A stretch of DNA of 64,000 bases from Dudresnaya verticillata (GCA_977862235.1 OZ374560.1:2356001-2420000); one strand, 5' to 3'; shown: positions 18,067 through 64,000, counted from the first letter of the stretch. Notes: generated from the letters alone by a model not told the origin. Numbers and translations: made by a program.

Positions 18067-18117
18067 CTTGTTGACCGCCGTGTTAGAAACAGTGCATATT
18101 AAGTCCCCATAAGGGGA
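18067..18117. repeat. Diverged inverted copy of 16279-16323 (loop plus right arm of the 16.3-kb hairpin family)
   Basis: CTTGTTGACCGCCGTGTTAGAAACAGTGCATATTAAGTCCCCATAAGGGG aligns with the reverse complement of CCCCTTAAGGGGATTTTTATACGCACTGTTGCTAATGCGGCGGTC. Confidence 0.8.
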
Positions 18118-28412: not shown

Positions 28413-30776
28413 ACTCAGAAGACACGTAGGTATCTGTGTCATACTCCGCCATGCATGAGAAGCCGTCTAACACTGTTCGATTTGACGTCAAACGTGATGA
28501 CTATGCAAAGATTTTGTGTTGCATTGTGGAAGTGCATCGACACCCATCAACGTCCTGGGGCTGTTTTCATCAACAAGAAAAGATCAGCAAGGTGTGGAAC
28601 AACGTAGAACAACAGGGTAGAAATGCGGTCCGGGTCCGTAGAGGCATATCGGTTGCACAGGCAGGTTGTATCTCCTGCAAGAATAAGCACCGGATCTTCT
28701 GTTTCCTCAATAGCTGTGGTAAATGTGGCCTACCTGGAGCTACACAGGCACCTTGTGCTGGCTTGCTTCTCATGCAACACGCAGCCTCCGCTCTCCATAG
28801 CACAATTTCTACAGCCTTCAAGCAATGGTGTGACGAGTGGCTGCTGCTGCTGACACAAGCCATAAACCCAGAGTTAATGGAGCGGGCACCATTGTCACAC
28901 ACACTGCAGCAATCATGATGCATGAAGCACACGTCATTGGGAGATAAAGAGCTTACCGACGGTCTCATGTGAGATAGTTTGGTTTTCGATGGGGGAGGGG
29001 TAATGTTACATGCAAAGCCGGAAGCATGACACTCTGCTTGCTCTCCGACGATCGCGGTCGTTCCTTCGATCTTTCGAGTGCGTCGTGTGATTGTGCTCGA
29101 TCAGAGTCAAGCGTTTCTGGAGATAGATTGGTCTCTATGGCAAAACTCGAGAGCTCGCGTGCTCATCCAATGCAGTTGTGTTTTAAATGGGCTCTTCTCT
29201 CTATATTGCGGTGACTGTAACGATATGTACCGCGCCGAGTTGAAGCTGCACTCGGCCGTTATGTGCCGTCTGCAGAAAAGAGCTCACCATTTTGGCTGCT
29301 GCCACTGTGTCTGCTGTGTACTAGTTGCGGACGCAGCTTACTTGCAACGGGCGAGGTACACGGGGTATGGTTGCAGGAGACTCTGCGTGGTGGTGAGTGA
29401 TACTTTTTCCCACTCCCTCTAGATACAGTGCTGTTTCACCTTTCCGCCAAGTGGATCCTATCGGGCTTGAGAAAGAAAGGGTGCGACTGAGAGAAAATAC
29501 TCGTGTGTGTGTGTGTCTGTGTGGTGCTCTCTGCTCATCGTCGCGAAAGGGTCTCGCGATAGTTTTTCTTCGTTTTCTAGTGTGAGTGTGTAGTTTTTGG
29601 GACACGGTGGTTTTTGTCGGTGGAGTTCGGTATGTGGGAAAGCGGTGGTTCGAGAATGGTATCGTTGAGGTGCGCAAAAGGAATGAGGTGGTACGTCAAC
29701 GGGGGAAGAAGTGTTGTTGTTGCTGTTGTTTGTACGGGTGCCCCCTGCGGCGGTAGGGCGCACACGGAGGTACGGCATGCACATGGATACATGTACGCAG
29801 GTACGAAGGTTGGCCGCAGACGGAGAAAGTGCGCGAAGACGTCAGTACAGCAAGACAACATGAGAGGTTCTATAGATACTGTACATGTATATCACAAGGA
29901 GGAAGGAAGGTGAGGGTGAGACGGTGTGCTACAGACGGTTGTGGGATGTCATTTGACGGGTTGCTTTGTTTGTTGAATGAAGACGCAGTGCTCGCAGAAA
30001 GTTTTATACGACCGGCATGGCGGCGCAGATGGCCGAGATTGACGCCGAAAGAGGCACGAACACGGCGCGGCAAGCAACGTTGCTGCGGGCGCGATGCGGA
30101 GTAAAGGCGCGGCTCTCAGCCGTGGAGCAGCGTGAAAGTTGGTGCGCGGGCAGTGCGCTTGGGCTGCTCGCGTCTTGCAAGTTTGCTGTGCAACCGGCGA
30201 AGGCGAGCGGCGAGGGCGCGCAGCGCGGCGCTTCCGTGCGTGTTTCCGCGGACGGAGGCGCGCGTGGACCGCCACAACGGCCGTCGCGTCGCGTGCCACG
30301 CCGCACGGCGCGCAAATGCTAAAAGCGCGACGGCAGGCGCCGCTGATTTCGACCGCGGCGCTGACGTCGGCCCCCGCGCCGCGCCGCGCGCACTCGCTGC
30401 GCCGCCGGACGGGACACTGCGCGCTGCGACGCGACCAGAGGAGAGAGCGGCGGAGAGCGAGACCGACGGCGCCGGCGACGGCGACGGCGACCTCTGCCAC
30501 TTCCGCGGCGCGGCGCAGAGACGCAGAGAGAGAGAGAGAGAGAGCACAAGCGCGTGCCCGCCCCGCGTCGCGAATGGCGCTCCGCCGCTGGTGATTGCTT
30601 GCGGCCTCCTCCGCGCGCGCGTCCGCGCGCGCGCGCGCCTCGCGCGCCGTGCGCGTGCCAGCCGCGCGACCGAACGACGGCGCCTCCGACGCGCCGCGCG
30701 GCCGCTGCGCGGTGCGCGCGCAGGCCATCCGTCGAGCGCAGTTGCGCTGGCGCGGGTGCACTCGGGCTCCGCGCTT

Positions 30777-30783
30777 TATATAG
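30777..30783 (+). promoter_or_regulatory. Putative TATA box of the bZIP gene
   Basis: Isolated TATATAG inside very GC-rich DNA, ~125 bp upstream of ATG 30906. Confidence 0.6.
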
Positions 30784-30905
30784 AACAACGGCGACCGTTT
30801 CACCGCCGTTGCAAGTCGGCGCGAACAGACGAACAAACAACGCGCCGCGCATCCATCCGCCCAGCCGTCCACCCGTCCACCCGTCCACCGCTCCAAAACG
30901 CTGCA

Positions 30906-31448
30906 ATGCCGCCCCACGCACCCTCGCAGCCGCGCAAGCGCGCGCCAGCCGCGCCGCGCGCGCAGCGCGCGACGGCGTCGTCGGGGTCGTCGTCGGGGTC
31001 GTCCACGTCGTCGCTACAGTTGTCGTCGCCGTCGCCGTCGCTGCCGCGCAGCGTGCGCAACATGCCGCCCGAGCTGCGCCGCGCCATCCGCCGCAAGCAG
31101 AACAACGACTCGTCGCGCCGCGGCCGCGAGCGCCAGAAGCGCGAGGGCCACCGCCTCAGGCTGCAGAGCGGCGAGAACGAGAAGACCATCGCCGAGCTGG
31201 AGAAGCAGGTCGCGCAGCTCGAGCTCACGCTGTCGGAGAAGAAGAGGCAACGCCAGAGAGGTGCGTCCGCGTCCGCGCCGTCCGCGCCGTCCGCGCCGCC
31301 GCCGCCTCGGCAGAAGAAGGCCGCTGCAAATGCACAGGCACTTGCACAGGCAAAGGCAAAGGCACACGCACAGGGCAGTAGTAGTGCCGCGCCGTCGCAC
31401 AAGGGCGAGTACTTTGAAAAGGCAGACTTTTTCGGAGACCCGTTCTAG
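30906..31448 (+). CDS. bZIP transcription factor, 180 aa
   Basis: Basic region RRAIRRKQNNDSSRRGRERQK fits N-x7-R-x9-L, followed by heptads ...ENEKTIAELEKQVAQLELTL. The ATG at 30906 lies downstream of a TATA box. Confidence 0.88.
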   Translation: MPPHAPSQPRKRAPAAPRAQRATASSGSSSGSSTSSLQLSSPSPSLPRSVRNMPPELRRAIRRKQNNDSSRRGRERQKREGHRLRLQSGENEKTIAELEKQVAQLELTLSEKKRQRQRGASASAPSAPSAPPPPRQKKAAANAQALAQAKAKAHAQGSSSAAPSHKGEYFEKADFFGDPF

Positions 31449-34400
31449 CTTGGCCACCTCGCCCTATACCTTGGCACAACGACTTTTTGTCCAGCCTGCT
31501 TCAACCGTACAACACTACTATACAGCAACAGCAATAACAACAACAACAACAACAACAATAACATCATCATCAACAACGACAACAAGCAACGCCTTTTTGT
31601 AAATCTTATATCGTCGTTATAGAGTTGCTTCTTCTCCAACGGCTGCTATACCTAACAATAATATCACCACATCTCTAATGCTCCACTCCTTCATCTGTCC
31701 GTTGTACCAGTATCAGTATCCAGCTTGTACAAACCAACCCGCGCAAAAACAACAACAACTGTTGCAGCTCCATCGTGGCCAAGCCCTGGTGGTGGTGGTG
31801 GTGGTGGTGGTGGCCACTGACTCTGCCCTATCTCGTCATACCTGTTTACAACGCCGCGTGCGACGGCATGCGCTTCATTGCTGACGCGCTCTCGACGACT
31901 TGCGAGGAGCACATTTGCACACACACATACACACACAAACGCGCGCACACAAGTTGCACCCGCAACCCCGCATACGTCGCACCGGCAACAACAACGACAA
32001 CAACAGAAAGTCGTGGCTTGCACAGCAGCACTGTGAATCAATCTCTGACACATGCACATGCACGTCCCATCAAAGTCGGAAGTGTGCTCATCTCAAGTCG
32101 TGTGTATGTCCGCCGCGGAAAACGCAGCACCATTGCATGGCAGCGGAGCAACTTGACGAGACTACGCAGCAAATCGAACAACGGTTCTCTCACTGACCGA
32201 ACAACCACGCCTCAACGGCGCGCAGGTGAACGACATCTGAACAAACGACGCCTCAACAAACCGCACCCCCGCGCATCTTGTGGACATACTGCCGGTGCCG
32301 TGTCCAGTGCTGCGCGGTCAGGTTGGAACGCGCTGCCATTGACAGGCGGCTCCGGCACTGGCGCGGCCGAGCCGGCCGCGGACGTCAGCCCGGCACGCGC
32401 TCGAGCGCCGCCGCTCTGTGCCGTCCAACGCGTTGCGCCACCTCTCTCGCTCTTGAAGCGCGCATCTCGCTGGGCTTCACGGTCGTCGACGCTGTGGCCA
32501 CATCAGAGCTGCGCGCGGGTCGCCGAAGCTGCGCGCACGGGATGCGGACCAATCGGCACGCGCGTCGTCGTCTCGCTGCCGCATGCGCGTCGTTGTTTGC
32601 TCACGTCAGTCGACGTTGAAACAACGCACGCATGCGCAGTCAGTCAGTCTGGTGCCGCGAGTGTGATCACGCTCAACGCCCAGTGCCTGTCTGACCCGCT
32701 CATATCTTTCCCGTCAGGAACAACACCACATCACCACATCGGCGCCGTGCGGGCCAACCGGCCGACGCCGTTTTGAGTCAGTCTGCCTCCCCGCCAAAGG
32801 CCAGCGGCGAGCGTCTAACAACCGTCTCTTGTCTTGTCGAAGGGCAAGGCTTGGAGAGCAACCCCATTCCACAGGCATCGATCGCTGCAATAGGAGCGCA
32901 GACTGCACCCCTTGTATTCTACACCGTGCTGAAGATTCCTTCCTTGCCCGGCGGGAATACCGCACTGTTGAAGAAAAAAAGACTTCTCACTCTCTCTCGC
33001 TCCCGACGCTCCCGACGCTCGAAATGGCACATGTCGTGCAGCCCCAGCAACACCGCTGCCGTACCGTCGCGCATTTCTTCTTCGTCGAGCTCGCGTGCAA
33101 GTATGCTCGTTGACATGCGCACCGTGTGCAACTTGACGCATGGCACGGCATGGCAGCTTGTCCCAGCGCTGCACACAGAGAAGACCAGCGGTCGTTGCGG
33201 CTGTCGTCAGCAGCGCGCCTTTCATGCCAAGCTCTTTCTCCGCTCTTCTCTCTTGCTCTTCCATCTCTCGACACGGCAGCAACACTCGCATGCGTCACGA
33301 CGCTTCACCCCGCAATCACTTTGGTCGCGCGCCCTTCACCTTTTTATTTCAGCACCCAATCGCCTTTGCTCGTTTGCCGCGAGGACGCTGCAACGGCCGT
33401 GTGCGGCCCGACGCGCCTCTTTATGGCGACTTCATTGTTGCGACGAAGGTGTCAACCGCAGCATTCGCACCGCTTCGCGTGCAAGCCGGCGCCTGCGACG
33501 AAGACCCTCCAACCCCGCTTCAATACAATCATTCACCACGCGCGTTGTCCTCAAACGCGCGCTTCTTTTCGCACGCAGGCTGGGCACGACGCCGTGCGGA
33601 TTGTCAAGCGCGGGCACGGTCGCGGATGCAATGCCACCGACTTGTTCTGCTTTTCTTCCCCGTATCCTCCGCGAATGACATGGGATTTGTACCATTACAC
33701 TGCTCTGCTTGTTTGCCAATGGATGACGCTTCCTGATGTGTGCGCAATGTGTGCGCAGGTTTCATGGCGTGTGACGGTAACATCTAATGGAGGAGTCCTC
33801 AACAAGCCCGGTTCGTTCAAGCTGGTTCATTGTGTCTTCTTGTCTTCAGAGCGAAAATCCTTGAGGTGTATACCCTTAGGTGGCTTTGATTGTTTCAACG
33901 TCGAGTACAAAAAGAGAACCTTTCTCTGTCCATTAGTACCACAACTACTCAACTATGCCATTCCGGCAATCTGCCGTCTCACCAATGTTTCTAAAGTGTA
34001 CAAAAGCTGTTGTCAGCGGCTCTGCCAACAGCAAAAAAAACTTGTTCCAATGAAAAAGTGCCTTCCCCCTACCTGCTCGGCCTTGAGCACTGGTGTAACA
34101 GTGTCCAACGCTAGGACTACCCCTCCAACTTCGTTTCAAAACGGTGATGTTGCTCGACATTGCCACCTTTATAGTTGACTGAAGGACTTGCAAGGCTCCA
34201 TCTAAAGCCCCCTTACGACATAAACAGTCGCTATTACCCACGGAATGATACCGGAAAGGGCTCATTTACACTGTGCCGAGTCAGTTTTACTGCCCATCGC
34301 ACGAGCACTTGTCTGGAATCTATTGTTCACGGTTAGAGATTTATCCTCGCTTTCACTATTCTGTCGTCCTGCCATTCCGCAACCCATGCACGTCTTTGAA

Positions 34401-41300: not shown

Positions 41301-41748
41301 CGAGATTACTCACAGCGCAGCAGTTTCCTTCTCATGTAGGTCTCCGCCTCCAGTTTCAGAAAGGTCTCATGATGAAACAGGGGGAATTCTGATTGCAACG
41401 GACGTTTGCCCTGGGAAGTGGCAGGTATACCTATGTCATAATATCAGGTCTGTTTGCGACTCCCCCGCCATCCTTTCTACCAAAACCTCCGCATGCCACT
41501 TTCATACTTGGTGTTCTGTACGTTTGAGACCTGTTACTATGTTGGGTTTGGGTGTCTGAGGGAAAGAAACCGTTTAGAAGACGCTAACATACATTTCAAC
41601 GGCCTAAAACTAGGCATGTTCAAAACCTGGGCTATTTCGGATCGCTTCTGGTCTGTACGGCCGTGGGAAAAAGCATGAGCCAATTCATCTTATCTGCCCT
41701 ATTTTGGAGCTTCATACACAGGAGCGGTCATAGGCTATGCCTCAATAT

Positions 41749-41811
41749 GTGTGCGTTGCTCATACTCGCTATGATAATACTACGCTAATAGCGAGTATGA
41801 GCAACGCACAC
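41749..41811. repeat. Perfect 24-bp-arm hairpin, 15-nt loop
   Basis: GTGTGCGTTGCTCATACTCGCTAT (41749-41772) and ATAGCGAGTATGAGCAACGCACAC (41788-41811). Confidence 0.95.
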
Positions 41812-41866
41812 TTAGTGTGAGGCAGGATCTGCCTATACCACGTAGGTTGAGGGGTTTGGCAAACTG

Positions 41867-47634: not shown

Positions 47635-47705
47635 TACGCCGGCCGGGAATTGAACCCGGGTCTCGCCCGTGGCAGGGGCGTATGCTACCACTATACCACC
47701 GGCGT
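47635..47705 (-). tRNA. tRNA-Gly (anticodon GCC), intronless, 71 nt
   Basis: ACGCCGG TG GTAT AGTGGTAGC ATAC... anticodon arm CGCCC-CTGCCAC-GGGCG, T arm CCGGG-TTCAATT-CCCGG, acceptor ACGCCGG/CCGGCGT plus discriminator A. TTTT terminator ~7 nt downstream. Confidence 0.96.
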
Positions 47706-48525
47706 TTGTTGCGGGTTTAAACGAAGCAGGGCAGATATCTCGTTCCTGGCTCTAGAAACTCTATCAAGCCGCTAAACGCAATTGGGGCGCAAACCCCTTT
47801 TCGACAGAAAATAAACCACACCACACGCAGCAATTGGAGCCCCACTCGACGGCAACTGCTAAGCCCACAGCGGCCATGTAGTATCGGAACCGCTTTCTGA
47901 AAGAAATAAAAGCGTACAAAACTCGGTTCCTAGACTCTCTCATGAGAGCTCCATTCGAACACAGACATGTGCCACCATAACCAGCTAGAGCGTCGGTATC
48001 GTTCATTGTCAGAAGACAAAGTATTTCAGCTCTCCCCACCGTGCATGCGACGAGGTTGGCGCAATAAGCGCACTACACAATGTGTTATTGCATAGAAGAG
48101 TTCTGCTATCCCTGAGATCACCAAAGTATGCTGCAATAATGGCTAACGTGATGAAAGACCTCACGGGGTTAGAGTAGAGTGTGTCAGCTTCTGCAGCAAG
48201 GGCCTACAGCGTCTTTGACCCATAAGCAGGCGCACCTTGGAAGGAGAATGGTCTAGGGGATAGCGCTACCTGAGGGAAGTTGGTTGTCGCGCGATGTAGC
48301 CGAGTGATTCGCGGCACAGCAGCAAAGCTACCCCTTGCACTGCGCGGGTGTGCATGTGCAACTCAGCCACGTCACTGCGACATGCACCAAGTAGGGCGGA
48401 TGCGGTGGTGTTCCGAAGATGGTGACGGGAGGGAAGGACGTGGTGCACTACCGCGTCGGCTTTCTTTGCGAGTTGCTCCTTTCGGTGTCCACGTGTGAAG
48501 CCGCCCACTCTGCGCGTCACGGCTT

Positions 48526-48680
48526 GCAGCACACCTGCGGCGGCGCGTTGAGATGCGGGTTTGTGCCGTAGCAAAAGACGCGAAGCACAACCATCTGTGC
48601 GGATATCTCTCCTGTAGCACCGCGCACGGGGCGCGTTTGAAAAGTAATGAAAATTCTGCGTGCGCTTCTCGCGGTGGCAC
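48526..48680 (+). repeat. Four-box ~155-bp element, copy A
   Basis: Boxes at 48526, 48563, 48614, 48674 (spacing 37/51/60); AAAAGTAA at 48640. Confidence 0.85.
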
Positions 48681-49473
48681 GGCGGAGACTGCAAAGAAAT
48701 AACAACATTTCGGCATTTTGGACATGGAAGGCGGCGCAGTAAGAAATAGTCATAATGGAACCGGGTCGGTTCCCCATTCGTGCGACTCGTGGCTTATTGC
48801 CAGCAGCCGGTGACATCGACTGACTGGCATATCCGAAGATTGAAGAACTCTCTCACGTTGTCCACAGACAGGCACTTCGTAAAGTCCACAAACTCTCTCA
48901 CGTTCCCGTGACCAACCTGACCCCCTTTGCTCACTACAGAATAAAATAAAGATGGTTGTCGCTCGCAAATTTCTACAGTACCCTGATCCTCCCAGTCACA
49001 AACTGCAAAGCTCGCGGGCTGATTGCGCAAACAAAAACAAACCGGTCCTGATACCCGGCCCTTCGTGACACGCACGCCGCCTCGCGGGCTTCGCGGCGGG
49101 GAGCATGCAAAAGGCTGTTATCGATGCTCACATCGCGCATGCAGGTGCTTGCGCTGAGCCAGCAGCAACCCAGCCGGCGCTGTAGAACTTTGCTTCCATA
49201 CCGATCGCATCTCTCATTCCCCTCGCACGAACGCTCGACGCAACGACGTTCTGTGAGGCGCGGGAGCATCAGCCGCGGCGCCGGTGTCGCGAGCGCCCGC
49301 GCGGCGGCCGCAACCTGCCGTACAGCGCAGTGAGGCGCGGTGCGAAGCACGCGAGGAAGAAGACGATGGCTGCGTGGGGGGCCCACACCGACCTCTTCGC
49401 GGTTTCGGCGGGGTGGTCCGGACGAATGCAATTGAAACCCACTCCCAGCCTGGTGAAACTGGGTTTCCGGGCT

Positions 49474-49628
49474 TCAGCACACGCATGCCGCGATGTGGAG
49501 AAGTGCGTCCGTGCCAGTGCGGGATAGGCGATCCAAACCCATCTGCGACGGTTTCCCTCCAGTAGCACCGCGCGCGAGCGATTGGCGGAAAGTAATGTGC
49601 AGCGGGCTTGTTGCTTCTACAGTGGCAC
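49474..49628 (+). repeat. Four-box element, copy B
   Basis: Boxes at 49474, 49511, 49562, 49622 (37/51/60); GAAAGTAA at 49588. Confidence 0.88.
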
Positions 49629-49772
49629 AGCACAGACATCGAGTAAGGAGAGTTTAGGGAGGCACTTTGTGGGCTCTGCGCACGCGGTGTGCAGTCGCGA
49701 AGGGCCCTTGTCCCTTCCGTGATGGGTGCAATACCCTTTTCGACAGTAGCGCTGCGGCGAAGCGTAGGGGTT

Positions 49773-49928
49773 GCAGCACAGCAATGAGGCGAGGCTGCGA
49801 TGCGGTTTGGTGCCATTGCAAAAGATGGCAACCAGCGCCAGCTGGGAATCAGTTCTGTGCTATAGCACCGCGTGCCGGGGATGCCCCAAACTCGATTCAA
49901 ATGCGCCAGGTTTGCCTGCCAGTGGCAC
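49773..49928 (+). repeat. Four-box element, copy C
   Basis: Boxes at 49773, 49810, 49862, 49922 (37/52/60); the A-rich box is degenerate. Confidence 0.8.
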
Positions 49929-50076
49929 GGCATGCGCTTCGGGCAGTAATACGGACAGCTATTCGATTCTGGCGCGTGAGAGGTGAGCACGAAAGCTTGG
50001 CAGACGTCGGTCGCACGGTCGCATTCTCAAGTCGTGTGCGAGCATGCTCGTGTGCTATAGTTGTGCGTCGATGGCT

Positions 50077-50125
50077 GCGGCAACGCGTGCCGCGCCGCGA
50101 CCATTCCCAGTGCGTGCCACTAGAA
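50077..50125 (+). repeat. Four-box element, truncated copy D (boxes 1-2 only)
   Basis: GCGGCAA at 50077 and GTGCCACTA at 50114 (spacing 37). Confidence 0.5.
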
Positions 50126-51814
50126 CAAGTGCGCGGAGGTCGTCCCTATTAGCAGTAGACGCAACCCACCATGTTGCAAGTAGTGCTGCGTTAGTGTGGA
50201 GACCACTTGTTCCAGGAAATCAGTTCGTCGAACAAGCTTCGCTCCTCTTGGCCCCGTTGTGACATCATACCTTCTCGCGTTGTCAAGCCCCAGTACCACA
50301 ACAAGCCAACGCAACCTTTCTCCCGGTAAAATTAGGATATCTAGATGAACATGGTAACATAGAGAAACTTATTGTCTTCCAAATGATGTGATAGATCACT
50401 AATGTCTTATCACGCCTTGCTCCAAGATCAGAACAACGCTTTACTGCGTAGAAACCGCACTCCCGGCCCCCTGAGACTGCAAGACATTCCAGTCGATCCA
50501 ACTCTCCAGTGCGTTGCAGCAGAACCATACGGACGCTTGCAACAGCACAGGAAAGTATGGCTGCTCGTTCATGTAGAAAAGTATTTGCAGGGGGAGGTGG
50601 GTACCTCATGCGTTGGCGGTGTTCGCTTGGGAACGACTGTGTTACATATTTGTAAGGAGGCGTGACTGCTGCGGCAGACGGTAGATACCGGCAGTTCGGC
50701 AGCAGTGAGGCGCTGTTCTACTACACTGCGCTATGCTACGCATTCGCAAAGCACATGCGTCGGCTACTGCGCGAAGGAACCCATTGCAGTTCGACTGCAG
50801 CTTTCAACCTGTTCAGCACATAAAGTTCCCGCATGTCTCTCCCTGTTCAGACTTACCATTCCTTCACTGGCGTGCATGGCAAGTGAACTGTCGTGCTCGC
50901 AGCGCGCGCCACATTCGCGCAACCCGTGGGTCGCGGACGCGCTGCAAAGGAAGCCATCAGCCTTCGGGACGAAGCGCTTCGCGTGCGCGTGCAACTGGGG
51001 TCGCGGCGTAGCACTTTGCTTTGCAGGCACGCAGGCAACCACTGAAGGCGACGGCCGGCTGCTGAGGCGCTTCCGCGCGCCACGTGCAGGGTGCCCAAAC
51101 ACGCGCGAGTGCGCACGTGCTGAAGCGAACTGAACGGAGGCTGTGCGGAGTGGCATCGATACGCGCGAAGCGGCGCCCGTCGATGTGGTGGGAGGGAGAG
51201 GGGGGCTGCGGCGTGGTGTCCCAGGGCAGGGAAAAGGTGGCGCTCTTTGCGGCGCGGTGGAGCCAGGCAAGGGTGGCTCGGGGCTTTTGGCCAACACACT
51301 TCTGTACGCTGCGCTTCCGGAGGCATGCTGTTCTCGCGCGGTGCGGTTGTGGGGCAGATGGGAAGAGAGGTCGAAGCGCCTGCTTTTGTCTGTGCTGGGG
51401 CCGATACGGTCGAGAGTTGCGGGCTTGGGATTTGGACGTGCGAGACGGCGTGGCGTAGGGCGGCGCGCGTGAAATCTTGTGGCTCAAGCAGGGTTCGAAG
51501 GAGGGGGTTGGAAAGTTGCAAGATGCCACACGTGTTGCAAGCATGCGGTGAATGGGGCTCGGGAGGTCAAGCGCAGGAGCAAAGCGGCGATGGTAAACCT
51601 TTACCTAAAGGGCCGAAAGGTGGACATAACGCAGAAAAAGACGGGCACTGCTTCAATGCAGGCTTTGTCGCGGCGGGACTCGCGAGTGACGCGACGAGTC
51701 TCGACCATCTCTCCTCGCGAAGGGCAATGCCGAGGCTGTCCACGGCTCCTTCCGTAGCCGCTGATCTCATCACGCCCCGTGCAGAACCGCTGCGATGCAG
51801 GTTGCACTTGCGCA

Positions 51815-51971
51815 GTAGCACAGCTGCGGCACGTGCGCGAGGGGCAAGCTTGTGCATTTGGAAAAGGTTCGAATTGGGCCGATTTGGAACGGGTTCCCTA
51901 CTGTAGCAACGCGCGCGCGGACCTTCTTGAAAATAACCGTCATTATGTATTTCTGTCTGGTAGTAGAGCAC
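51815..51971 (+). repeat. Four-box element, copy E
   Basis: Boxes at 51815, 51852, 51903, 51963 (37/51/60); GAAAATAA at 51929. Confidence 0.85.
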
Positions 51972-53040
51972 GGGGGTCGTTAGGTTCGAACGATGCCCCT
52001 GTTTCAGAGGACCGGCTGCCGTTGTAAATTGGTATTTACATTACACCCGGGCGGCTCCGGGCGTGAGAGTGTTTGCCGGCGCAAGTTTTCAGGCGCATGA
52101 ACCCTTCGAAAACGCAACCCTACTTGTCTCGTGTCATCTGTTAGCCGTACCGTACAGACTCCGACGTTATACACGCACTCCCTACCGACGCACCGGGGCT
52201 CCGTAGCAACAATGTATGTGTGCGTTGTGTGTGAAACCAAGAGAAAGGAGCTCTAGCACACCGTCGTCAACTTCTATGGTCAAGTGAACCCCGGCATTAA
52301 ACTCAATGTCCGACGCGAACGGTCTCATGGACGTCGTCGTCAAGAAGCGCGCGTCCTCAGTGTCTGACAAGCTTGCCATTCGTAACAAGTTGTTATTAAC
52401 AACTCGCCCTATATTCCCAGTTTCTAAATTCGACGAGTAGAACGAAGCTTTGTAGAGCTCCACGTCCCTACTGACCAAAGTCCCCCCTTCTTTCTTAGCA
52501 TCTACAACACCAACACGGTGTCAACATGCAAAGTTGTCCTCCCTTCCTGAGAAGGTCTGTTTATGTTGAAGCTCCGTGACGGAGCTCCCGTTTAGCCGTG
52601 AATCAAGGTCCAATCGCGTGCTGGTCCAGCCCTACTGGGAAACTATTCGCGTCTATCGTTCGAGGAAGGCTAGTCAATCGGGAAGCTAACACATTGCATT
52701 CCTTGAGTGACGCTCCACCCAGGCTGAAAACGGTTCTGTCTATCCTTCAAGCGCATCATATGGATAGTGTTAAGGCACCAAGGTAGAGCTGGCGTTGTCA
52801 CGACCAGACGAGAGCTCAACATCGTTCTCAAAGCTTTTCGGATGCATGCCTTGGACATGCGTGGGAGACGCTGCCGGAAATTGAGAGAAATGACAAGGGG
52901 AGATATGGGGAAGGTGAGGCGAAGAACTCCGGGCGCGGTGCGCATTCATTACTGGGCAGTTGTGAAACGTTAGGCACCCATTCACTAACGCGCGCAAACA
53001 GCTAAAGGCAAATAAATACAAGCAGCAATACACGCATCGC

Positions 53041-53160
53041 AAGAGAGATGGGGAACTTCATGGTAGGGTTCGAAGGGCGCTAGGTCGCCCGGTCTACTCA
53101 AGGATCTACCTGAAGGGCAAGACGACGGCGATTGCTTGCCAGCGCTTGAAAACGGAGAAG
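53041..53160 (-). mobile_element. 120-bp 3'-terminal fragment of the CRE-like retrotransposon, inverted
   Basis: Reverse complement matches 54361-54480 at 110/120 positions without gaps; both end at CCCCATCTCTCTT. Confidence 0.92.
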
Positions 53161-53392
53161 GACGTAGAGCAGGGGCACCGGGCGTGTGGCCGCGGCGGCG
53201 ACGGCGGCGGCGGATGGGGGCAGTGGGGCGCACCTGGCGCCAGGTGAGCATGGTGACCAACGCTGAGGCCGAGCTCATTTCTCTGCATGGACGTGGCGCG
53301 CGGAGCAGAGCGGCTGGTGCGGGAAGGCTCGACGGCTGAAGGGCCAGCACACAGCTGTTGGTTCTTGTTTGCGATGCCGCAGGTTGCTGCGC

Positions 53393-53449
53393 CACAGCTT
53401 CAGCGCCGTGATTGCAGCACAGCTTCAGCGCCGTGATTGCAGCACAGCT
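53393..53449 (+). repeat. Perfect 25-bp tandem duplication containing box 1 of copy F
   Basis: CACAGCTTCAGCGCCGTGATTGCAG x2 plus CACAGCT. Confidence 0.9.
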
Positions 53450-53593
53450 GTGGAACCGGTGTGAGAGGTATACTTGTGCTGCTGTGAAACGTACGAATCG
53501 GGCAAAATTTAAACGCATTTCCTCGTGGTGCGCAGCGCGCGAGGGCCGTTGTGAAAGTAATCACTAAAGTTGGGTGTTTTCTGATAGTAGCAC
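53439..53593 (+). repeat. Four-box element, copy F
   Basis: Boxes at 53439, 53476, ~53527 (degenerate), 53587 (37, then 111 = 51+60); GAAAGTAA at 53553. Confidence 0.82.
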
Positions 53594-53623
53594 AGCACAG
53601 AACAGTAAGGTGTTTTCTGGCAG

Positions 53624-54480
53624 AGCTCTCCATCGCTTTCCTTGCATTCTTCAACAGTGCAGCAAAAATCGTACATGGCTCGTCTTCTGTCCTGCAGCAC
53701 GTCTGCAGCTAGTGCGCCATTTACGGCCCTCCCGAATTCCTATCGCGGTACTCGCTTCACCCCGGAGGAAAGGATTGCCGCGTGTGATATCCGCTTGGGA
53801 AACCCGGTTTTCACCGGCACTACTCGTTGTCCCCACTGTGTACTCACGCGGGCCGTGACGCAAGCTCCTCTACTTGATCCTCTCGGGAAACATGCCATCA
53901 CCTGCGCTACGCGCGAAGGTGCTATCCGGTCATAACACCTTACGCGATGTTCTAGCCAACGAATTCCGCCAGCTGGGCCTACGGGCCTATCTATGTCGAG
54001 TACTCGTTTCTCGCCGAACGTCATCTGCCCCCTACTTCTCGTCGCCGTATGGACGTGGTGATTCCTATTTCTGCCTTTGACGTTACGGTGGCAGCCCCGT
54101 TTGCTGCCAATTACCGCACTGCTGCCTCTCGCTTGGGTGGAGCAGCGCCGACGCTCGCTGAACGGCCCAAAAGAGCGCATTACCAAGATCTACGCGACAG
54201 CGAGGGAATGGATTTCTATGCTGTCGGTATTGACTCCTACGGCGCTATTGGCACTGAGGCTCGTCAGGGGTTACGTGCCATTGGCCGCTTTACGTCCGAA
54301 CAGAGAGGGAGTAACCCTTCGGACGAAACGCAAGCACTCACGATTCGCATTGTATCTCATCTTCTCCGCTTTCAGGCGCTGGCGATCAATCGCCGTCGTC
54401 TTGCCCTTCAGGTAGGTCCTTGCGTAGACGGGGCGACTTAGCGCCCTTCGAACCCTACCATAAAGGTCCCCATCTCTCTT
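53624..54480 (+). mobile_element. 5'-truncated CRE-clade non-LTR retrotransposon (zinc knuckle plus restriction-like endonuclease), frameshifted
   Basis: ARLLS...FTALP...IRLGNP...CPHC...DPLGKHAITC, (R)HNTLRDVL, RRMDVV...FDVTV, AERPKRAHY, DSYGAIG; stop at 54441. Flanked by TTTTCTGGCAG at 53613-53623 and 54479-54489. Confidence 0.88.
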
Positions 54481-55025
54481 TTCTGGCAGTGGCACAGCGC
54501 TGCTATCTAGACAAACTTGGTACAGTACAAGTGTAATCCGGGCGAAGCTGTTGATCCCGGACAAATTTGCTGCTGAACCTGGACAAACTGCTGATCTCGG
54601 ACAAACATGACGACCCGGGCAAACCTGCTATTCCGAAGCTCCCACAACCGCGTCCAGCAGTAACCTCTAGCACAAGCATGCTCCGCTGCGTCTGGGAGAC
54701 CATGCGTTCACCAGCGACCAGAGCAGCTCTCGCATCGCGTGCAAGCACGATGGTGGTGCGTCTGTAGTCGCGGCGCTGCCCCAGAGAGCATAGAAGGTGT
54801 GGGTAGCACTTGCCTGCAGGCATGTGGCCGACCGGCAGAGGGTGACGCGGCGATGAGCACGCACGCGGTGCCCGGTGTCTAAGGCTGTCTGTCTATATTT
54901 GTGGGAGAATGAGGGCAGAGCGGTGTCGAAGCGCGCAGCGCACGTTGATGTCGGTAGCAGGGCGTTCGTCTCGGTCTCGATTCAATTCCGCTCCCAAACT
55001 GCCTTGATGGTGTTATGTTGCGTTT

Positions 55026-55181
55026 GTAGCACATCTGTGTTCAAGTGGACGAGCGGCGTACTTGTGCCACTACAAAATATGCGAACCGGACCGACAGGCC
55101 CTGATTTCCACATTGTAGCAGCGCGCGCGAGGACCTCCATGAAAATAAGTGCAAATATTTGCTTCATTCCGGCAGTAGCAC
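55026..55181 (+). repeat. Four-box element, copy G
   Basis: Boxes at 55026, 55064, 55115, 55175 (38/51/60); GAAAATAA at 55141. Confidence 0.9.
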
Positions 55182-55796
55182 AGCACAGACTGTTCTCTAC
55201 ATGCGAAACTTCAAGCCAGTGTTCGTTGTTGTAGCCGAAAATAGCCGTGGGTGCTCCGGCTTCGAACGCGGTGACTGTTTGTTTGCAGCACATGCTTGAC
55301 CTGTGTTCCGTTCTCGTGCGACTGCAGCACCCTCCAAACTTTTAACCGCCTGGCTGCGGAGCCGGCCCGGCAGTACCGGGCCCAGTCCGCTCGACGTGCA
55401 GGTGCCCAGGGCGCTCCAAAGACCAGCGGTGTGCACATGCCGAACCGAACGGCACGGCAGATGACAAAAACCGACCGCACGGGAAACCGCGGGATGCGCA
55501 CGGTGGCTGGCGTCCATGTGCGCAACGCACCCGCAGCTGCGAGGTGCTGCTCTTTACGGGCGCGGCGCGGCCTGGCGCGGGTGTCAGGGGACGGGGGGGA
55601 GCGCTGCGCACGTTGTGATATTAAACTTTATAGGACGGCGCACGTTGTGCGGCTGGAAGGGAGGACGGAGGTGTCGACCGAAGGGTGGACAGGCAGACAC
55701 GGCGTGGGACCCACGTCGAGTCGGGACGCAGTGCCACCGGGCCTCGATTATGCGTCGTGCTAGGCCGGTGGAGAAGCGCTCGTTCAGAGTTTGCTT

Positions 55797-55951
55797 GTAG
55801 CACGGCCACGCCTCGCGGTTGAGGGGCGTGGGCGTGCCACTGCAAAATGTGCGAACTGGGGCGGTTTGCGACGGTTTCCCTACTGCAGCAACGCGCGCGA
55901 CGAGCTTTGCGAAAGTAACGTTAATAGTCTGCTATTATCGGGCTGTGGCAC
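55797..55951 (+). repeat. Four-box element, copy H
   Basis: Boxes at 55797, 55834, 55885, 55945 (37/51/60); GAAAGTAA at 55911. Confidence 0.9.
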
Positions 55952-56111
55952 AGTGCAAACTTCTTGTCTGCCACCACACCGGGAAACGCCATGTAAATTC
56001 GCTAGTGATTCTTCGCCCCCTCTCGCTCTGCCTGCCCGAGCGGCCAAGGAAGGCAGGCAGGCATTGTGGTGGCTTCGGGGCGGCAACATCGTCGGGCACA
56101 GTGTTTGTGCA

Positions 56112-56268
56112 GTAGCACCCCGGCCGCTTGCGCTTTCAACGGCGTTCGTGTGCCACTACAAAATATTTCATCCAGGCCCATCCAGGGCCTAATTCCCCCC
56201 TGTTGCACCGCGCGCGAGGACCATCGAGAAAGTAACCTTATTTATCCACAAGTACGTGGCAGTAGCAC
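56112..56268 (+). repeat. Four-box element, copy I
   Basis: Boxes at 56112, 56150, 56202, 56262 (38/52/60); GAAAGTAA at 56228. Confidence 0.9.
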
Positions 56269-56743
56269 AGAACACACCGCTCTTTATTAGAATCCAACTC
56301 ACCGCCCCACTCACACTTCCACCCAGCCTGTCGCCGCGCACGGCACATCTTTCGCCACTCTTCGCGTGCACCACCCCGATAGCTTCCCGCCTGCCTTCGT
56401 CGCCCATGCAACGCGTCGCACGCAAGCGCGCAACCGCCTACCCGACAGACTTCAGCCATCAACAGCCCTGCATCCGTGTGCCTGCCCACGTCGCCCTTGC
56501 CCTCGTTTGTTCGCGCGCTGGCGCGGAGAGTGCGCATCGTTCGAGGCTGCACAAGCCCCAGCCTTTGTAATCTCCGTGGTGTGTTCTTGATACTTCCTTG
56601 AAAACTGTGTTGCCCCTTCTCGACCTTCCGCCGAGATGGAGCAGTCTTTATACTAATCCTTGTTCGTGCTCCTCCCCAGAGCGGTAGAGTGAGGAGTAGA
56701 ACTGTTACTATTCATTTCTAGAACAGTAGCCCGTAGGAACCTA

Positions 56744-56905
56744 AACAGTACTCTACAAGCTGAATACTACCGCAATCTAGACAATGCTCTGCAAGCGATT
56801 GCCTGCCGTAACGTAAGTAATACTCTACAAGCGGTAGTGCACAGCAGAGCAAACAATACCCTGCAAGCAGTAACTCCCAGCAACGGATACATTACTCTAC
56901 AAATT
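56744..56905 (+). repeat. 36-bp-period tandem repeat encoding a 12-aa xN(T/A)LQA repeat; possible ankyrin-like pseudogene fragment
   Basis: TACTCTACAAGC-like core at 56749, 56785, 56821, 56857, 56893. One open frame reads NSTLQAEYYRNL DNALQAIACRNV SNTLQAVVHSRA NNTLQAVTPSNG YITLQ. Confidence 0.7.
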
Positions 56906-58269: not shown

Positions 58270-59018
58270 TCCTGCCTCTCTCGATTTCGTTAGTGATTTT
58301 TGTTCTGCTTGTCTCTGGAAGCTTCAATAGTCTCTAGGCAACCTGACCAAAGAAGCAATAGATTGGATAACAAATCCATAGGCCACGATGGTGGTGCCTG
58401 GTCGGCATGTACCCATATCACTCAGTACGGAATGAATTTTAACTATGGCTTGGCAAACTATCTAACAACTTACCTGGAACCAATTAGAGAGATGGGGACC
58501 TTTATGGTAGGGTTGGAAGGAACCTACTACAGCTCTTAAACTCGGGTGTGAAATTGGGCTGTTCTTAAAGTTTCTTTCTAATACACTGCCTGAAATGTCC
58601 AAGGCTGTAGGTATTGAACCTGTAGGCATGTCAATGGCGGGAAATTTTGCACCAGATCCCCAGATACCAACGCAGATACCTAGGAACATTCTAGACAGTC
58701 AACACGCTCTTGAACGCAACAACATGTCAATTTTTTTCGATCTGGTCTTCAGCATAGAAGAAGCGGAACACATTTCTGAAGAGCAGCTGCCGATTCTATT
58801 CAAGTTCCTGGCTTCGAAAACTGAAAAGTATCTTCTCTTTTTCAGCAGCTCGACCGGGTCAAGGAGGTATGGGACATTTTCCTGGTTCGATGATGCCTAA
58901 AGAAGAATGGATACGGAGACTCTCAAAAGCTGGACTGTACTATCTCCCGAACCTTTCTAGTATTGCCTCGGAATCTTGCAACGAAAAGAACATTAGCCAT
59001 GTCAGGAACATTTTGTAA
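58270..59018 (+). pseudogene. Disrupted class I SAM-dependent methyltransferase with N-terminal membrane anchor
   Basis: Across stops and frameshifts: hydrophobic LSISLVIFVLLVS, motif-I-like LKLGCEIGLF, AVGIEP, FDLVFSIEEAEHI, FSAARPGQGGMGH...EEW. Ends are approximate. Confidence 0.7.
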
Positions 59019-59345: not shown

Positions 59346-60527
59346 TTAGAATAATAATTCTAGTTCAATATCGTACGGTCTGTAAAGCGATTTGAGGCTC
59401 TTTCGAAGGCTTTTGGACAGCTTTAGGTTTGTTGAACTCAACTCCTGTCTTTTCGGTCGTGCGTTGTACGTCTCTTGAAGTTGGGTAAAATTATATTTCT
59501 TGTGATCTACACCGATGAAATCCGGCACGTTGATCATTACGTTTTCTGTACTCTTGAAATCGCCGTAAAAGATAATGTTCATGTTTCCTCTTCCAACGTA
59601 GTACAACCATCTCAGCAAATAAGCGACATATACCCCTTCGTTAACGCAGTTAACCCCAACTCGAAAAAAATGGGAGGAGTTCGTTCACCGGTCCCTCCCA
59701 TGTTGCCCCTTGTGGCTGCAACAAAAGTATGTAGGTCTTTTTCTATGAATTGAGATATGTTTGAATTTAGATTCATTCCAGGAACACCCAGGCGAACCCT
59801 CATTACCATCTGACTATGGCACCGTTCTACGGGTTCTCGAAGTAACACAATCACTTTGTTCGGCTGATGTGAGCACTTGGAAAGGAAAGGCCAAGAACTA
59901 TTTACCAGACGAAGAACAAACGAATCAACAGCTATTCTGTGGTCTTTTGTGGATCTCCCCACTAATTTGTTGTGATCCCCATGGTATCTCAGGAATCGCC
60001 TACTAAGCAGCTGTTTCCTAACAGGAAGATATAGAATTCTGAAACAGTTTTTCTTAGATTATGGAGAGTATTTCCAGTGATACCTTGTAGACGAGTAAAA
60101 CAATGGGAAATCGTGACCACCTTCTTGTTCGCTTAATTGCTTCGCTGACACGTCGACGAATTCTTCAGACGTATTTGTCTGCCCAAATACAATGGCGTAC
60201 GTATGCATTTCTTCAATGGATAATAGCTTAATGTTTGTGTTATCTGGGTAGATCATTTCAGGGCAAGAGGCCAACCTTTCTCCATTACTCCGGAGTTCGA
60301 GAGATTTTGGAATCATTCCAATTCCCTGGTTTTGAAATAGCTCGGAAATAGTCTGAGAGGTAAACCCTCGGCTCTGATCTCCATTCCGGCAGATCTCTAC
60401 TTGCAACGTAAGTCGATCTCTTCAAACAGCATTGTATTATTGGCAGAAAACAGACGAGAATAGCAACGAGAATGCTTGCTGCATGCGCGAGAGTCAGCCT
60501 AGGATTTCCAAAGGGTCCTGTTTTCAA
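59346..60527 (-). pseudogene. Disrupted Golgi-type carbohydrate sulfotransferase (heparan-sulfate sulfotransferase-like fold)
   Basis: N-terminal anchor ASILVAILVCFLPII; 3'-PB motif KVIVLLREPVERCHS; GVYVAYLLRWL...IIFYGDFK...DFIGV; C-terminal LRKSLKSLYRPY. Split into four ORFs by frameshifts and a stop. Confidence 0.8.
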
Positions 60528-62106: not shown

Positions 62107-62994
62107 CTCGTTTAATCGAGCTGCTGATTTTAGACATGTCCACACATTTCGAACGTGCTTTAATAGAGCCCTGCGGTGTGTAGCTATTGGCGAATATAAT
62201 GTAATGTTGTAGATGTGTCACTACTACAACGCCCCAACATTCATAGAGTGTGCCGTTCTGAAATCATCATTGTTCGAAGCGCAGTGCCATGATGATAGTG
62301 AGCTTGTCTCAGCCTCACTGCTGAACTCTGCATCGATTATTCCATTATTGTAAGTATGCGTCTTCTTGCGGACAAACTATATTAGACTTGAAAGTCACGC
62401 TTGCATAGCGGCGCTTCGCACTGGGCACGATATCAGTGACGCGTCATGTGTGCAACGGTGTGGGGAAGACCGGGTCAGGAGGGCAAAGACGTGCGGACCC
62501 TCGCGTGACATCACGCCACCGATATTGTAGCCCTTTCGAAAGTGTACTTCCTATACAACAACACAATACACACAGTTGGCTTTTTGGATTTGGCTCACAC
62601 GGTCGCTGCCAAACATCTTGTCGCCCTTGCCATCAGGTGCGAGGAGCTCGACGTAGCTACCGTACTGCAGATGACTTCCAGGAAGCGAGGAACAAGCAAG
62701 GTTTTCTCGTCCCCATCACTTCAACCATACAGTCTCGCGCCAGTGGTCCCACACGCTCACAGTCAACCAAGAGTGCGAAGATATAGCTTGTAGGTTCATT
62801 TCCGACAAAAACACCCCATGAAGATTCTGAAACTGAGCGGACTACGGTTTCGGCATCGTCTTGTCGCCTGTTTTATAGTGCTTTCATTCATCGTTTTCTG
62901 TTACCCTCGAAAGACGCCCTCCATGGTATGCAAGCCAAAGTACAACTTACCGCCTATAACAAGCGAATGGCGTCAAGCTGCCAAAGAGACTGTT

Positions 62995-63660
62995 CTAAGG
63001 CATTTTCCGTGGGCAAGTACATCCGTTTTCGTTCCTCCAACCAAGGCGATGATACGCATTGACCGAAGGAACGAAGCTATTCGGCAACGCGGATACTTTG
63101 TCATTGGATACGACAACTACCACTCTAACACGCCTATTCCGAGAGGATACGACTTTTACGTGAGGTACTCTCCAGATCACATTGGTTCCCATTTTTACCT
63201 CAAGCCGAATGCCATACGCCTTGGAATTCAAGGTTGCCGGAAGAACACCAGATTCATCTACAAAGATAACGACGTTGTTCTTAAACCAGGAATAGAAGAT
63301 GGCTTCGAGAGGAACCGTATTACTTTTCAACGTGAGTTTTTTAACGATAGTGCGAATGCTGGTCTGATTATGGCCAGGAAATCTGGAAAAGTTAACGAAT
63401 TCATGTCGCTGTGGCAAGCCGGTGTTGGTCTTGCTGAAAACATAGAGCAGGATCAAACGGTTTTCCGAGCCATCCAATTTGGAAGAAAGAAAATGTTATC
63501 CTTAGCTCCGGCCGACTGGTACGGTATTCATGTCTACTCTGACACTTCCAACAGAAATATAGCTCTTCAATTCCTTCAAATCAAGTATTCCTCTACCATC
63601 TACTACATATATCTCTTCTGGGTAATTATTTTCTTGACCCTCGGAGTGCGGCATACTATT
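62995..63660 (-). pseudogene. Probable disrupted gene of unknown function
   Basis: 160-codon open frame without an ATG start, plus an upstream open stretch (MPHSEG...VPVGRS) in another frame. No recognisable domain. Confidence 0.35.
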
Positions 63661-64000
63661 TTTGTAGTGAGTTTCAATAGATTTGAGAGTCTTCAGTGTG
63701 TTTCAATGCTTGGAAGACTTGTCTTAAAGATCGGTTCTGGCAACACAATACTACTGGCAACCCTACTCACCGTTCTTGGACTGGTTTCTTCGGATCCCTT
63801 CATGTTCACTTGTTTCATGGGAAAGAAAAGCACTACTCGGTCTCTAGATTACAATGCGGGATATCACTTGGTAACGGGATTGTACACTCGCTTGTGGATT
63901 GTCGGGGCAGACGTAGCCATAGGAAATGAAGAGATAGCGTGCAAAACAAGAAACGTTCTCAACTTGCCCCCTATTGTATTAGGAGCAGTGCTGGACACAT

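Follow-up and report, generated by a model that had tools for sequence, protein, structure and literature searches.

A 64-kb stretch of Dudresnaya verticillata DNA (hereafter the window; positions are counted from its first letter) contains eight similar elements in which short boxes recur at nearly constant distances, and this raises the question of what keeps the boxes in register. By its sequence the host is likely a florideophyte red alga; in a quick kinase tree, the protein encoded in the window stayed unplaced on a long branch. An original prediction, made from the sequence, had proposed selection for a multi-site protein-DNA complex. In our analysis, the locus is likewise best read as a multi-site platform for protein on DNA that was duplicated locally and is under selection; judged from the DNA, we give this reading slightly less than an even chance, and we weigh it below against small RNA genes, transposons and decayed repeats.

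Alignment and profile searches placed all eight full copies at the starts claimed for them, on the plus strand (Table 1), and within the window they are confined to 48.5 to 56.3 kb. The element itself was thus upheld, and its size was corrected from about 155 bp to about 165 bp, running from position −2 relative to box 1 to position +14 relative to box 4. The copies have a GC content of 50 to 60% and share 47 to 65% pairwise identity. When a profile was built from seven copies, it recovered the held-out eighth in all eight tests (E values of 3.5e-12 to 1.4e-30, 41.5 to 101.3 bits), and the best match outside the copies in the 64-kb window scored 10.9 bits. A three-box pattern matched seven of the eight copies, compared with no match in 100 shuffles. 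The partial copy reported at 50077 is real as a box 1-box 2 pair 37 bp apart and is absent from the whole-element profile matches. Unlike the rigid full copies, the degenerate modules carry gaps. Units are separated by 135 to 1,900 bp of unrelated DNA. The gaps of 299, 304 and 315 bp between adjacent copies are as described, but the ancestral array of about 300 bp read into them is not borne out, since the DNA between copies lacks homology; TRF found no tandem array across the copies.

Table 1. Features of the repeat-bearing region and its surroundings (window positions)
Feature	Position	Strand	Details
Full copy 1	48524..48688	+	box 1 48526, inverted box 2 48563, box 3 48614, box 4 48674
Full copy 2	49472..49636	+	box 1 49474, box 2 49511, box 3 49562, box 4 49622; A-tract 3' of box 2 altered
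Full copy 3	49771..49936	+	box 1 49773, box 2 49810, box 3 49862, box 4 49922; lacks RAAARTAA
Full copy 4	51813..51977	+	box 1 51815, box 2 51852, box 3 51903, box 4 51963; 2-nt shift damages box 4
Full copy 5	53437..53601	+	box 1 53439, box 2 53476, box 3 53527, box 4 53587; damaged box 3; local duplications at both ends
Full copy 6	55024..55189	+	box 1 55026, box 2 55064, box 3 55115, box 4 55175
Full copy 7	55795..55959	+	box 1 55797, box 2 55834, box 3 55885, box 4 55945; sole copy with a strongly folding first spacer
Full copy 8	56110..56276	+	box 1 56112, box 2 56150, box 3 56202, box 4 56262
Partial copy	50074..50130	+	box 1-like site 50077, box 2 at +37; decayed and gapped downstream
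Degenerate box 1-box 2 module	48316..48370	+	box 1 at 48319, weak box 2 at +37; missed by the original prediction
Degenerate box 1-box 2 module, weak	55282..55335	+	spacing cut to 31 bp; also missed by the original prediction
25-bp tandem duplication	53393..53449	+	doubles box 1 of copy 5
Duplicate of copy 5 box 4	53609..54500	+	36 bp downstream; interrupted by CRE-like retrotransposon
5'-truncated CRE-like non-LTR retrotransposon	53624-54479		10-11-bp target-site duplication, 53613-53623 / 54479-54489
Second 3'-end fragment of CRE-like retrotransposon	53041..53160	-	92% identical; outside any box
GC-rich island	48200..56400	.	58% GC vs 45-49% in flanks; no recognisable host gene; free boxes enriched on +
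tRNA-Gly(GCC) gene	47635..47705	-	left edge of island

We found that the four boxes are versions of one 12-bp motif (consensus GCAGTAGCACAG), arranged in the order direct, inverted, direct, direct. When a matrix was trained on three of the positions, the remaining box ranked within the top 0.62% of the local background in 30 of 32 tests, a result inflated by the choice of box positions for their likeness. Spacing is 37 or 38 bp from box 1 to box 2, 51 or 52 bp from box 2 to box 3 and 60 bp from box 3 to box 4 in every copy, giving 148 to 150 bp from box 1 to box 4; the variation of at most 1 bp reported for the spacers was confirmed across the eight copies, as was RAAARTAA at +26 from box 3 in seven of them. 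The box consensuses first written down proved idealised: exact GYAGCAC occurs in seven of eight copies, but GTGCCACTRCAAAA in three, the box 3 form GTAGCAC in two and CAGTRGCACAG in three. Nor are the spacers free, as had been supposed; they are homologous, with a mean pairwise identity of 34 to 51% against 23 to 30% in the flanks. Between the copies, free motifs are enriched on the plus strand (12 found, 3.5 ± 2.0 expected, a count reached by 0 of 60 shuffles) and show no enrichment on the minus strand (4 found, 3.9 expected).

Conservation among the copies is blocky. In the alignment, 26 of 164 columns are invariant, where a model of uniform rates gives 13.8 ± 3.6 (a count as high in 1 of 500 simulated sets), and neither the longest invariant run of 5 nor the lag-1 autocorrelation of 0.41 was matched in any of 500 such simulations. 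The tree of the eight copies has a length of 2.6 to 3.0 substitutions per site, and we saw at most five indels of 1 to 2 nt, a count from which compensating indels within a spacer could stay hidden. At the rate of a control pair, 42 to 47 would be expected, or 15 to 17 at its lower 95% bound (P of about 0.002 or less), where the control is one other repeat pair in the window (54 mismatches, 6 gaps) that is assumed to be neutral. Similarity drops with distance between copies (Mantel rho 0.38, P = 0.037), and the tree splits the left trio from the right five with a bootstrap value of 80.

We then considered whether the constraint could be that of a protein or of a known family. As originally stated, no reading frame is conserved: codon-position identity lies between 0.48 and 0.60, and no frame is consistent across segments. 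A decayed protein-coding repeat was rejected on the same lack of a frame, on single-base length changes and on a synonymous share of 0.23 to 0.33 in the longest ungapped segment. The case for selection on the boxes and their geometry, as in a multi-site protein-DNA complex, is strengthened by the blocky conservation, the scarcity of indels, the use of a single motif and the absence of a coding signal and of significant covariation. The strict box pattern had 0 matches in metagenomes; a relaxed half pattern matched 18 metagenome stretches, and pattern scans gave 1 match in GTDB and 0 and 1 in IMG/VR. These 20 loci were dismissed as chance, as the element profile gave them no more than 7.6 bits, compared with at least 41 bits for held-out true copies. 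No homologues were thus found in the collections searched, which contain little red-algal nuclear DNA.

Each copy could instead be a lineage-specific gene for a small non-coding RNA of about 120 to 165 nt, perhaps transcribed by RNA polymerase III from internal boxes, in which box 2 would form a closing stem with box 4 or a bulged hairpin with box 1. We regard this as unlikely. Strict co-orientation, sharp boundaries, an RNA-gene size and a tRNA gene 0.8 kb from the array speak for it, and florideophyte small RNAs are poorly annotated, with 0 snRNAs and 0 snoRNAs from the Kappaphycus Rfam scan in the accessible part of that report (PMC11822179). In our eight-copy alignment, box 1 and box 2 pair in 87.5% of cells with borderline covariation (matched by 32 to 40 of 500 shuffles, and by 32 for the number of two-sided changes, with eight sequences only). 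Box 2 and box 4 pair in 80% of cells and show no covariation above that of shuffles (350 of 500 as high, eight sequences). Alignment folding against column shuffles gave plus-strand z-scores of −2.5 for the whole element, −3.2 for box 1-box 2 and −4.4 for box 2-box 4, more negative than on the other strand; the inverted box alone could produce such scores. Against the RNA explanation, single whole elements scored −1.4 to +1.4 on the plus strand, the spacers as a group gave no general folding signal, and no tight hairpin was conserved at one column in more than three of eight copies. Rfam, searched over 10 kb and with four of the eight copies in short stretches, returned no relevant match at E values up to 10, even for single copies, and the only match at the gathering score was the tRNA-Gly. 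Box 1 resembles a tRNA A box, and columns 63 to 71 loosely a B box. A type 2 polymerase III gene or tRNA-derived SINE was nevertheless rejected: the B-box-like stretch has one to four mismatches to the B-box consensus, and a T4 run lies within 150 bp downstream in only four of eight copies, scattered at 15 to 112 bp. ACA occurs 3' of box 4 in only five of eight copies and C/D boxes are absent; H/ACA, C/D, tRNA-like and 5S-like readings, which were judged by their motifs and had no Rfam support, were dropped. An RNA gene would also leave it unexplained why one motif occurs four times, in both orientations, and a single inverted box cannot pair with all three boxes of the opposite direction, which favours reading the boxes as DNA.

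Transposition could also have produced the copies, as miniature non-autonomous transposons or their ends, likeliest of Helitron2/HINE type and read on the minus strand, with box 4 as the terminal and box 2 as the subterminal member of an asymmetric inverted repeat. Rolling-circle amplification or self-insertion would then account for the local pile-up, and box and length conservation would date from the time when source lineages were active. This explanation, which we consider unlikely, if slightly less so than the RNA genes, fits several observations. Helitron2/HINE elements carry asymmetric inverted repeats of 8 to 15 bp, one by the 5' end and the other 20 to 60 bp from the 3' end, together with terminal hairpins, a 5' T, T-runs at their ends and insertion into TT. 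Like Helitron2, HINE and DINE-1 elements in the accessible text of three reports (PMC3627910, PMC4067079, PMC5148889), the copies have an asymmetric inverted repeat, no target-site duplication and possible tandem clustering or extra termini. Box 2 and box 4 form an inverted pair of 10 to 12 bp, whose members lie about 6 bp from one end and about 38 bp from the other; the portions of the literature at hand give HINE subterminal repeats of 12 to 15 bp, 2 to 4 nt from the 5' end and 38 to 60 bp from the 3' end (PMC4067079), and place the 3' repeat of FoHeli2 38 bp from its end (PMC5148889). A search for target-site duplications of 2 to 10 bp at the copy boundaries, proposed with the original prediction, found only self-matches of the boxes, and Helitrons produce none according to the available part of PMC4067079. 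Tandem Helitron insertions and multiple 5' termini are on record and may be why there is a box 3, a doubled box 4 and remnants with only box 1 and box 2. However, a conserved terminal hairpin is absent at either end on either strand, where we also saw no folding signal (combined z of −1.7 to +1.5), and no T-run, TC start or CTRR end is common to the copies, with a minus-strand start of T in six of eight. The box 2 and box 4 repeats show no covariation above that of shuffles. Unlike these transposons as far as the same sources describe them, the copies have a fixed internal length and two extra same-direction boxes, and no autonomous partner was seen in the window; its other 56 kb has no copies, and no Rep/helicase domain was found in 44 window frames scanned. 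The interior length has been kept, unlike that of neutral relics at 35 to 53% divergence. A MITE or other cut-and-paste DNA transposon was rejected, given end boxes that are direct rather than inverted and the missing target-site duplication. Solo LTRs or a decayed tandem TRIM or satellite with a period of about 300 bp, now neutral, are already largely refuted and very improbable. The gaps of about 300 bp, the TG start in five of eight copies and an AATAA-like box would suit them, and the unit is within the size range of TRIM LTRs in the accessible part of PMC4717578, which places TRIMs in Chondrus and whose TA-TRIMs and solo LTRs resemble our copies as co-oriented repeats below 250 bp with some spacing of about 300 bp. 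In contrast to those elements as presented there, our copies lack homologous internal regions and a 5-bp target-site duplication, and their TG...CA ends are weak (CA in three of eight). The inter-copy stretches, the TRF result and the scarcity of indels, far fewer than the control predicts, also stand against them, as does the lack of a common primer site or polypurine tract beside the ends.

The protein-DNA platform that we favour would have arisen by local duplication of the units of about 165 bp, which selection would then have kept in place as docking platforms of double-stranded DNA. On each copy, a single protein that recognises the motif would sit at all four boxes and help to assemble a complex of nucleosome length and fixed direction. 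A different part is damaged in each of four copies, and the copies may therefore be redundant with one another. Among candidate jobs, the likeliest is one in chromosome structure, in which several point-like modules would seed a short regional centromere, although it is in itself unlikely; a promoter, enhancer or boundary array ranks after it as a fainter prospect, and a role as origin, fork barrier or site of recombination comes out as quite improbable. Stated in full, the candidate would be a sequence-defined short regional centromere in a multicellular red alga, made of about eight co-oriented, nucleosome-length point modules with four sites each for one protein, possibly transposase-derived. 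We consider this full version doubtful, marginally more so than the centromere role in general.

Comparison with known centromeres yields both likenesses and differences. The point centromere of budding yeast (CDEI-CDEII-CDEIII) is present once per chromosome and has an AT-rich spacer of 78 to 86 bp between different end motifs. Our copies share with it short motifs, which bind protein in yeast, a constrained distance and about one nucleosome of DNA; they differ in being eight in number, in a GC content of 50 to 60% and in carrying one motif four times, so that neither the AT-rich spacer nor the different end motifs of yeast are found here. In the accessible part of a study of Meloidogyne incognita (PMC8097292), CenH3-bound monomers are 56 to 73% alike, GC-rich for the genome and linked by a conserved 19-bp box with dyad potential, and the present copies are similarly divergent, GC-rich units with a short conserved box. 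The nematode repeats, as given there, are head-to-tail tandems of 45 to 83 bp with varying length, one box and ChIP evidence, whereas ours are 165-bp units with unrelated DNA between them and four boxes at fixed spacing, known from sequence alone. Cyanidioschyzon merolae, which likely belongs to the same phylum, has short regional centromeres, the one red-algal type to have been mapped, of 2 to 3 kb with 48.4% GC (genome, 55%) and no pattern in the portions of the sources available (10.1101/096016, PMC11005252). Few-kilobase gene-free DNA is common to both, but the island here spans 8 kb, has 58% GC against 45 to 49% in its flanks and is strongly patterned. As centromere DNA would be, the island is a gene-free interval, with only a retrotransposon fragment and a flanking tRNA gene. 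We found no 10- to 11-bp dinucleotide periodicity of nucleosome type in the copies (P = 0.08 to 0.88). GC skew flips from plus to minus across them (P = 0.017 to 0.024), and a similar switch surrounds a bZIP-like gene at 30 to 31 kb, which points to promoter-like DNA. The low-GC, patternless centromeres of C. merolae, the absent periodicity and the skew switch count against a centromere role.

For a multicellular red alga, the literature searched gave no mapped centromere, origin or other chromosomal element defined by a motif, and the word "centromere" is absent from two recent chromosome-level genome papers. The rigid 165-bp module is a ready probe for a profile scan of the assembly, and if clusters occur once per chromosome, the position of a red-seaweed centromere becomes directly testable. 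Such a centromere would stand, as something new outside yeasts, between the point and regional types, and would be a candidate component of artificial chromosomes for a farmed group in which genetic tools are scarce. Should the copies instead be an RNA or transposon family, that family would still be undescribed and its length constraint unusual, although of modest interest.

The interval had also been described as without a credible gene. This is correct in that it contains no recognisable host gene, and no Pfam domain reached the cut-off in 27 frames of 44.7 to 62.8 kb, but a retrotransposon fragment with coding remains lies inside it. That this retrotransposon marks the element by inserting at a specific site is unproven, since only one of three fragments is in a box. 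The CRE-like insertion in the duplicated box 4 of copy 5 had been overlooked in the original prediction.

Profile searches in which each copy was left out in turn recovered 8 of 8 held-out copies of the four-box module (E values of 3.5e-12 to 1.4e-30), confirming the original prediction of eight copies, all on the plus strand, at the predicted starts. The best profile match outside the copies within the window reached 10.9 bits, an unfiltered model search was concordant, and a three-box pattern matched 7 of 8 copies compared with 0 of 100 shuffles. Identity among the copies was 47 to 65%, with 69 to 80% in the boxes, 34 to 51% in the spacers and 23 to 30% in the flanks. The element had been described as about 155 bp long with free spacers; it is a discrete unit with sharp ends, but its length is about 165 bp and its spacers are homologous. 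The rigid geometry was borne out, with box spacings of 37/38, 51/52 and 60 bp and a distance of 148 to 150 bp between the first and last boxes. When the whole window was searched for a direct and an inverted box spaced by 37 to 38 bp, ten modules emerged. They fall within 48319 to 56150 and comprise the eight copies used for training, a degenerate module at 48319 and the partial copy expected at 50077.

The four boxes share one consensus, GCAGTAGCACAG, once box 2 is read as its reverse complement. In 30 of 32 cases, a matrix built from three box positions scored the remaining one within the highest 0.62% of the local background, a result inflated by the boxes having been chosen for their likeness. 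With copies, remnants and duplications masked, free motifs numbered 12 on the plus strand compared with 3.5 ± 2.0 in shuffles (0 of 60), and there was no enrichment on the minus strand (4 compared with 3.9). Because this excess is confined to the plus strand, the GC-rich island that contains the copies is polar throughout, reflecting either dispersed sites or older decayed copies.

Of 164 alignment columns, 26 are invariant, whereas simulation at a uniform rate along the fitted tree predicts 13.8 ± 3.6 (the observed count was reached in 1 of 500 simulations). None of the 500 reached the longest invariant run, 5 columns, or the autocorrelation, 0.41. The copy tree is nearly star-like, with 2.6 to 3.0 substitutions per site and thus about 430 to 490 substitutions among the copies, alongside at most five indels of 1 to 2 nt each. 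An unrelated 340-bp dispersed repeat pair (78% identical; 54 mismatches, 6 gaps) served as the indel control. At its rate 42 to 47 indels would be expected, or 15 to 17 at the lower 95% bound (P of ~0.002 or less), a comparison that rests on one control pair assumed to be neutral and that may hide compensating indels. The degenerate modules carry gaps. Four full copies are each damaged in a different part, which suggests redundancy or incipient decay.

The farther apart two copies lie, the less alike they are (Mantel rho 0.38, P 0.037), and the left three copies split from the right five (bootstrap 80), a pattern that would fit local duplication. The DNA between copies cannot be aligned and speaks neither for nor against a former 300-bp array. 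Copy 5 carries a 25-bp duplication doubling box 1. A retrotransposon of 856 bp, truncated at its 5' end and flanked by a 10- to 11-bp target-site duplication, interrupts a duplicate of box 4 of this copy 36 bp downstream. The retrotransposon C-terminal frame has 56 relatives at E values up to 0.001, with RVT_1 in 4 of 8 scanned; its C-terminal cysteine knuckle and nuclease-like motif are consistent with what we take to be the CRE clade. The other two fragments, both 3' ends, are not in boxes, so box targeting is without support. Two of the three fragments face outward around copy 5, mimicking 120-bp terminal inverted repeats.

Features of yeast centromeres, tRNA boxes, snoRNAs and LTRs provided the general background for comparison. 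The absence of a conserved reading frame was upheld, and a coding repeat was rejected, since third-position or synonymous bias is consistent in no frame. A MITE or LTR was likewise rejected, as none of the boundary pairs of the copies shows a target-site duplication. We give nearly an even chance to the copies being a candidate multi-site protein-DNA platform, in which the four occurrences of one motif, three direct and one inverted, would be putative binding sites on double-stranded DNA and their relative helical positions would matter. Double-stranded DNA binding is the simplest reading because distances are fixed and no pairs covary significantly. The first-to-last box span is about that of one nucleosome; no 10- to 11-bp dinucleotide periodicity supporting wrapping was found in the copies. 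The main rival, transposon relics of the Helitron2/HINE type, is possible though unlikely: the asymmetric inverted-repeat geometry, according to the available portions of PMC3627910, PMC4067079 and PMC5148889, matches a minus-strand reading of the copies, whereas the Helitron2/HINE hairpins and T-rich ends are absent. That the copies are RNA genes appears improbable. Alignment folding exceeds column shuffles, a signal that favors an RNA but is confounded by the inverted box. Whole-copy folding on the plus strand gives z of −1.4 to +1.4, and of the eight copies only one has a first spacer that folds. Spacer 2 folds weakly (combined z −1.9 on the plus and −2.2 on the minus strand), one or two copies being responsible. 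The predicted lack of consistent compensatory pairing held for box 2:box 4, which pair no better than shuffles, and less clearly for box 1:box 2, whose pairing with a 3-nt bulge shows borderline covariation. An Rfam search found no known RNA besides a tRNA-Gly, and the intronic RNAs in the accessible text of 10.1101/2025.12.01.691491 are not similar to the four-box element. A neutral LTR or satellite is extremely improbable, and a minimal chance is left for something else.

Among jobs for such a platform, a centromere is the likeliest but still improbable. The gene-free interval, local multiplication and retrotransposon debris would favor it, as would, by analogy, the Meloidogyne monomers, which are GC-rich and divergent and share a conserved box (available part of PMC8097292). 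Arguing against it, the only mapped centromeres of red algae, by the portions available of 10.1101/096016 and PMC11005252, are low in GC and lack a pattern, and the island is similar to the DNA around a bZIP-like gene, which is also GC-rich and switches skew. A regulatory or boundary function would be quite unlikely, and an origin, barrier or recombination site very unlikely.

The four-box array is a real, undescribed, unusually rigid non-coding module array and passes none of the family membership tests run. Pattern scans of metagenome, GTDB and IMG/VR collections, which hold little red-algal nuclear DNA, gave chance matches only. In the accessible parts of the literature, searched by topic rather than motif letters and also covering PMC8997354, PMC13578239, 10.64898/2026.05.14.725108, PMC4717578 and PMC11822179, we found neither such an element nor centromeres of multicellular red algae described.

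Coordinates of features in the window
Feature	Position	Strand	Remarks
Island with copies	48200-56400		GC-rich
Copies 1-8 (box 1)	48526, 49474, 49773, 51815, 53439, 55026, 55797, 56112	+	
Weaker degenerate module	55285		31-bp box spacing
Indel control pair	1390-1729, 9889-10227		
CRE-like non-LTR retrotransposon fragments	53624-54479 (+), 53041-53160 (-), 58486-58520 (-)		three, 5'-truncated, 91-97% identical
tRNA-Gly	47635-47705		
Ephrin_rec_like protein	2356-4254	-	cysteine-rich, likely signal peptide, repeats (Pfam); divergent from next
Ephrin_rec_like protein	6504-7952	+	as above
Reprolysin (M12B) metalloprotease	11988-14408	+	secreted-looking, Ser/Pro-rich linker (Pfam)
Second GC-rich island	29500-34000		61% GC, CpG o/e 1.31
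Palindrome features	16239-16370, 17459-17539, 18073-18156, 41738-41824		include palindromes with 30-56-bp arms
TATA-like box, then C-rich sequence	55600-55640	-	~165 bp left of copy 7
Degenerate 72-bp-period repeats	56724-56902		three; immediately right of copy 8, at GC-rich island edge
Sulfotransferase-like broken frames	59346-60421	-	recognized by eye
Open frame	62818-64000	+	at least 394 aa, hydrophobic C-terminal part

The window is of eukaryotic origin; its long reading frames, which are poor in introns, include those for the two Ephrin_rec_like proteins and the reprolysin protease. The reprolysin protease has 4 homologues without names at E values below 1e-20. Another such frame encodes a kinase (Pfam), whose best-scoring short relatives include Agarophyton chilense and Eucheuma denticulatum proteins; a quick tree left it unplaced. 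These relatives point to a florideophyte red alga as the likely host. The bZIP-like frame (~30.9 to 31.4 kb) was recognized by eye and has no Pfam match. The second GC-rich island surrounds it; GC skew switches strongly there, microsatellites and a TATA-like box (near 30777) are present, and the four-box element is absent. No TATA was found at a distance matching that of copy 7 beside the other copies. Among the palindrome features is an inverted pair ~1.8 kb apart, which might represent the two termini of a DNA transposon. The sulfotransferase likeness is presumed from a motif, and none of the three frames scanned there has a Pfam match. The open frame at the right end has no Pfam domain and only 6 homologues, without names and 31 to 43% identical; it is a member of a small lineage-restricted family.
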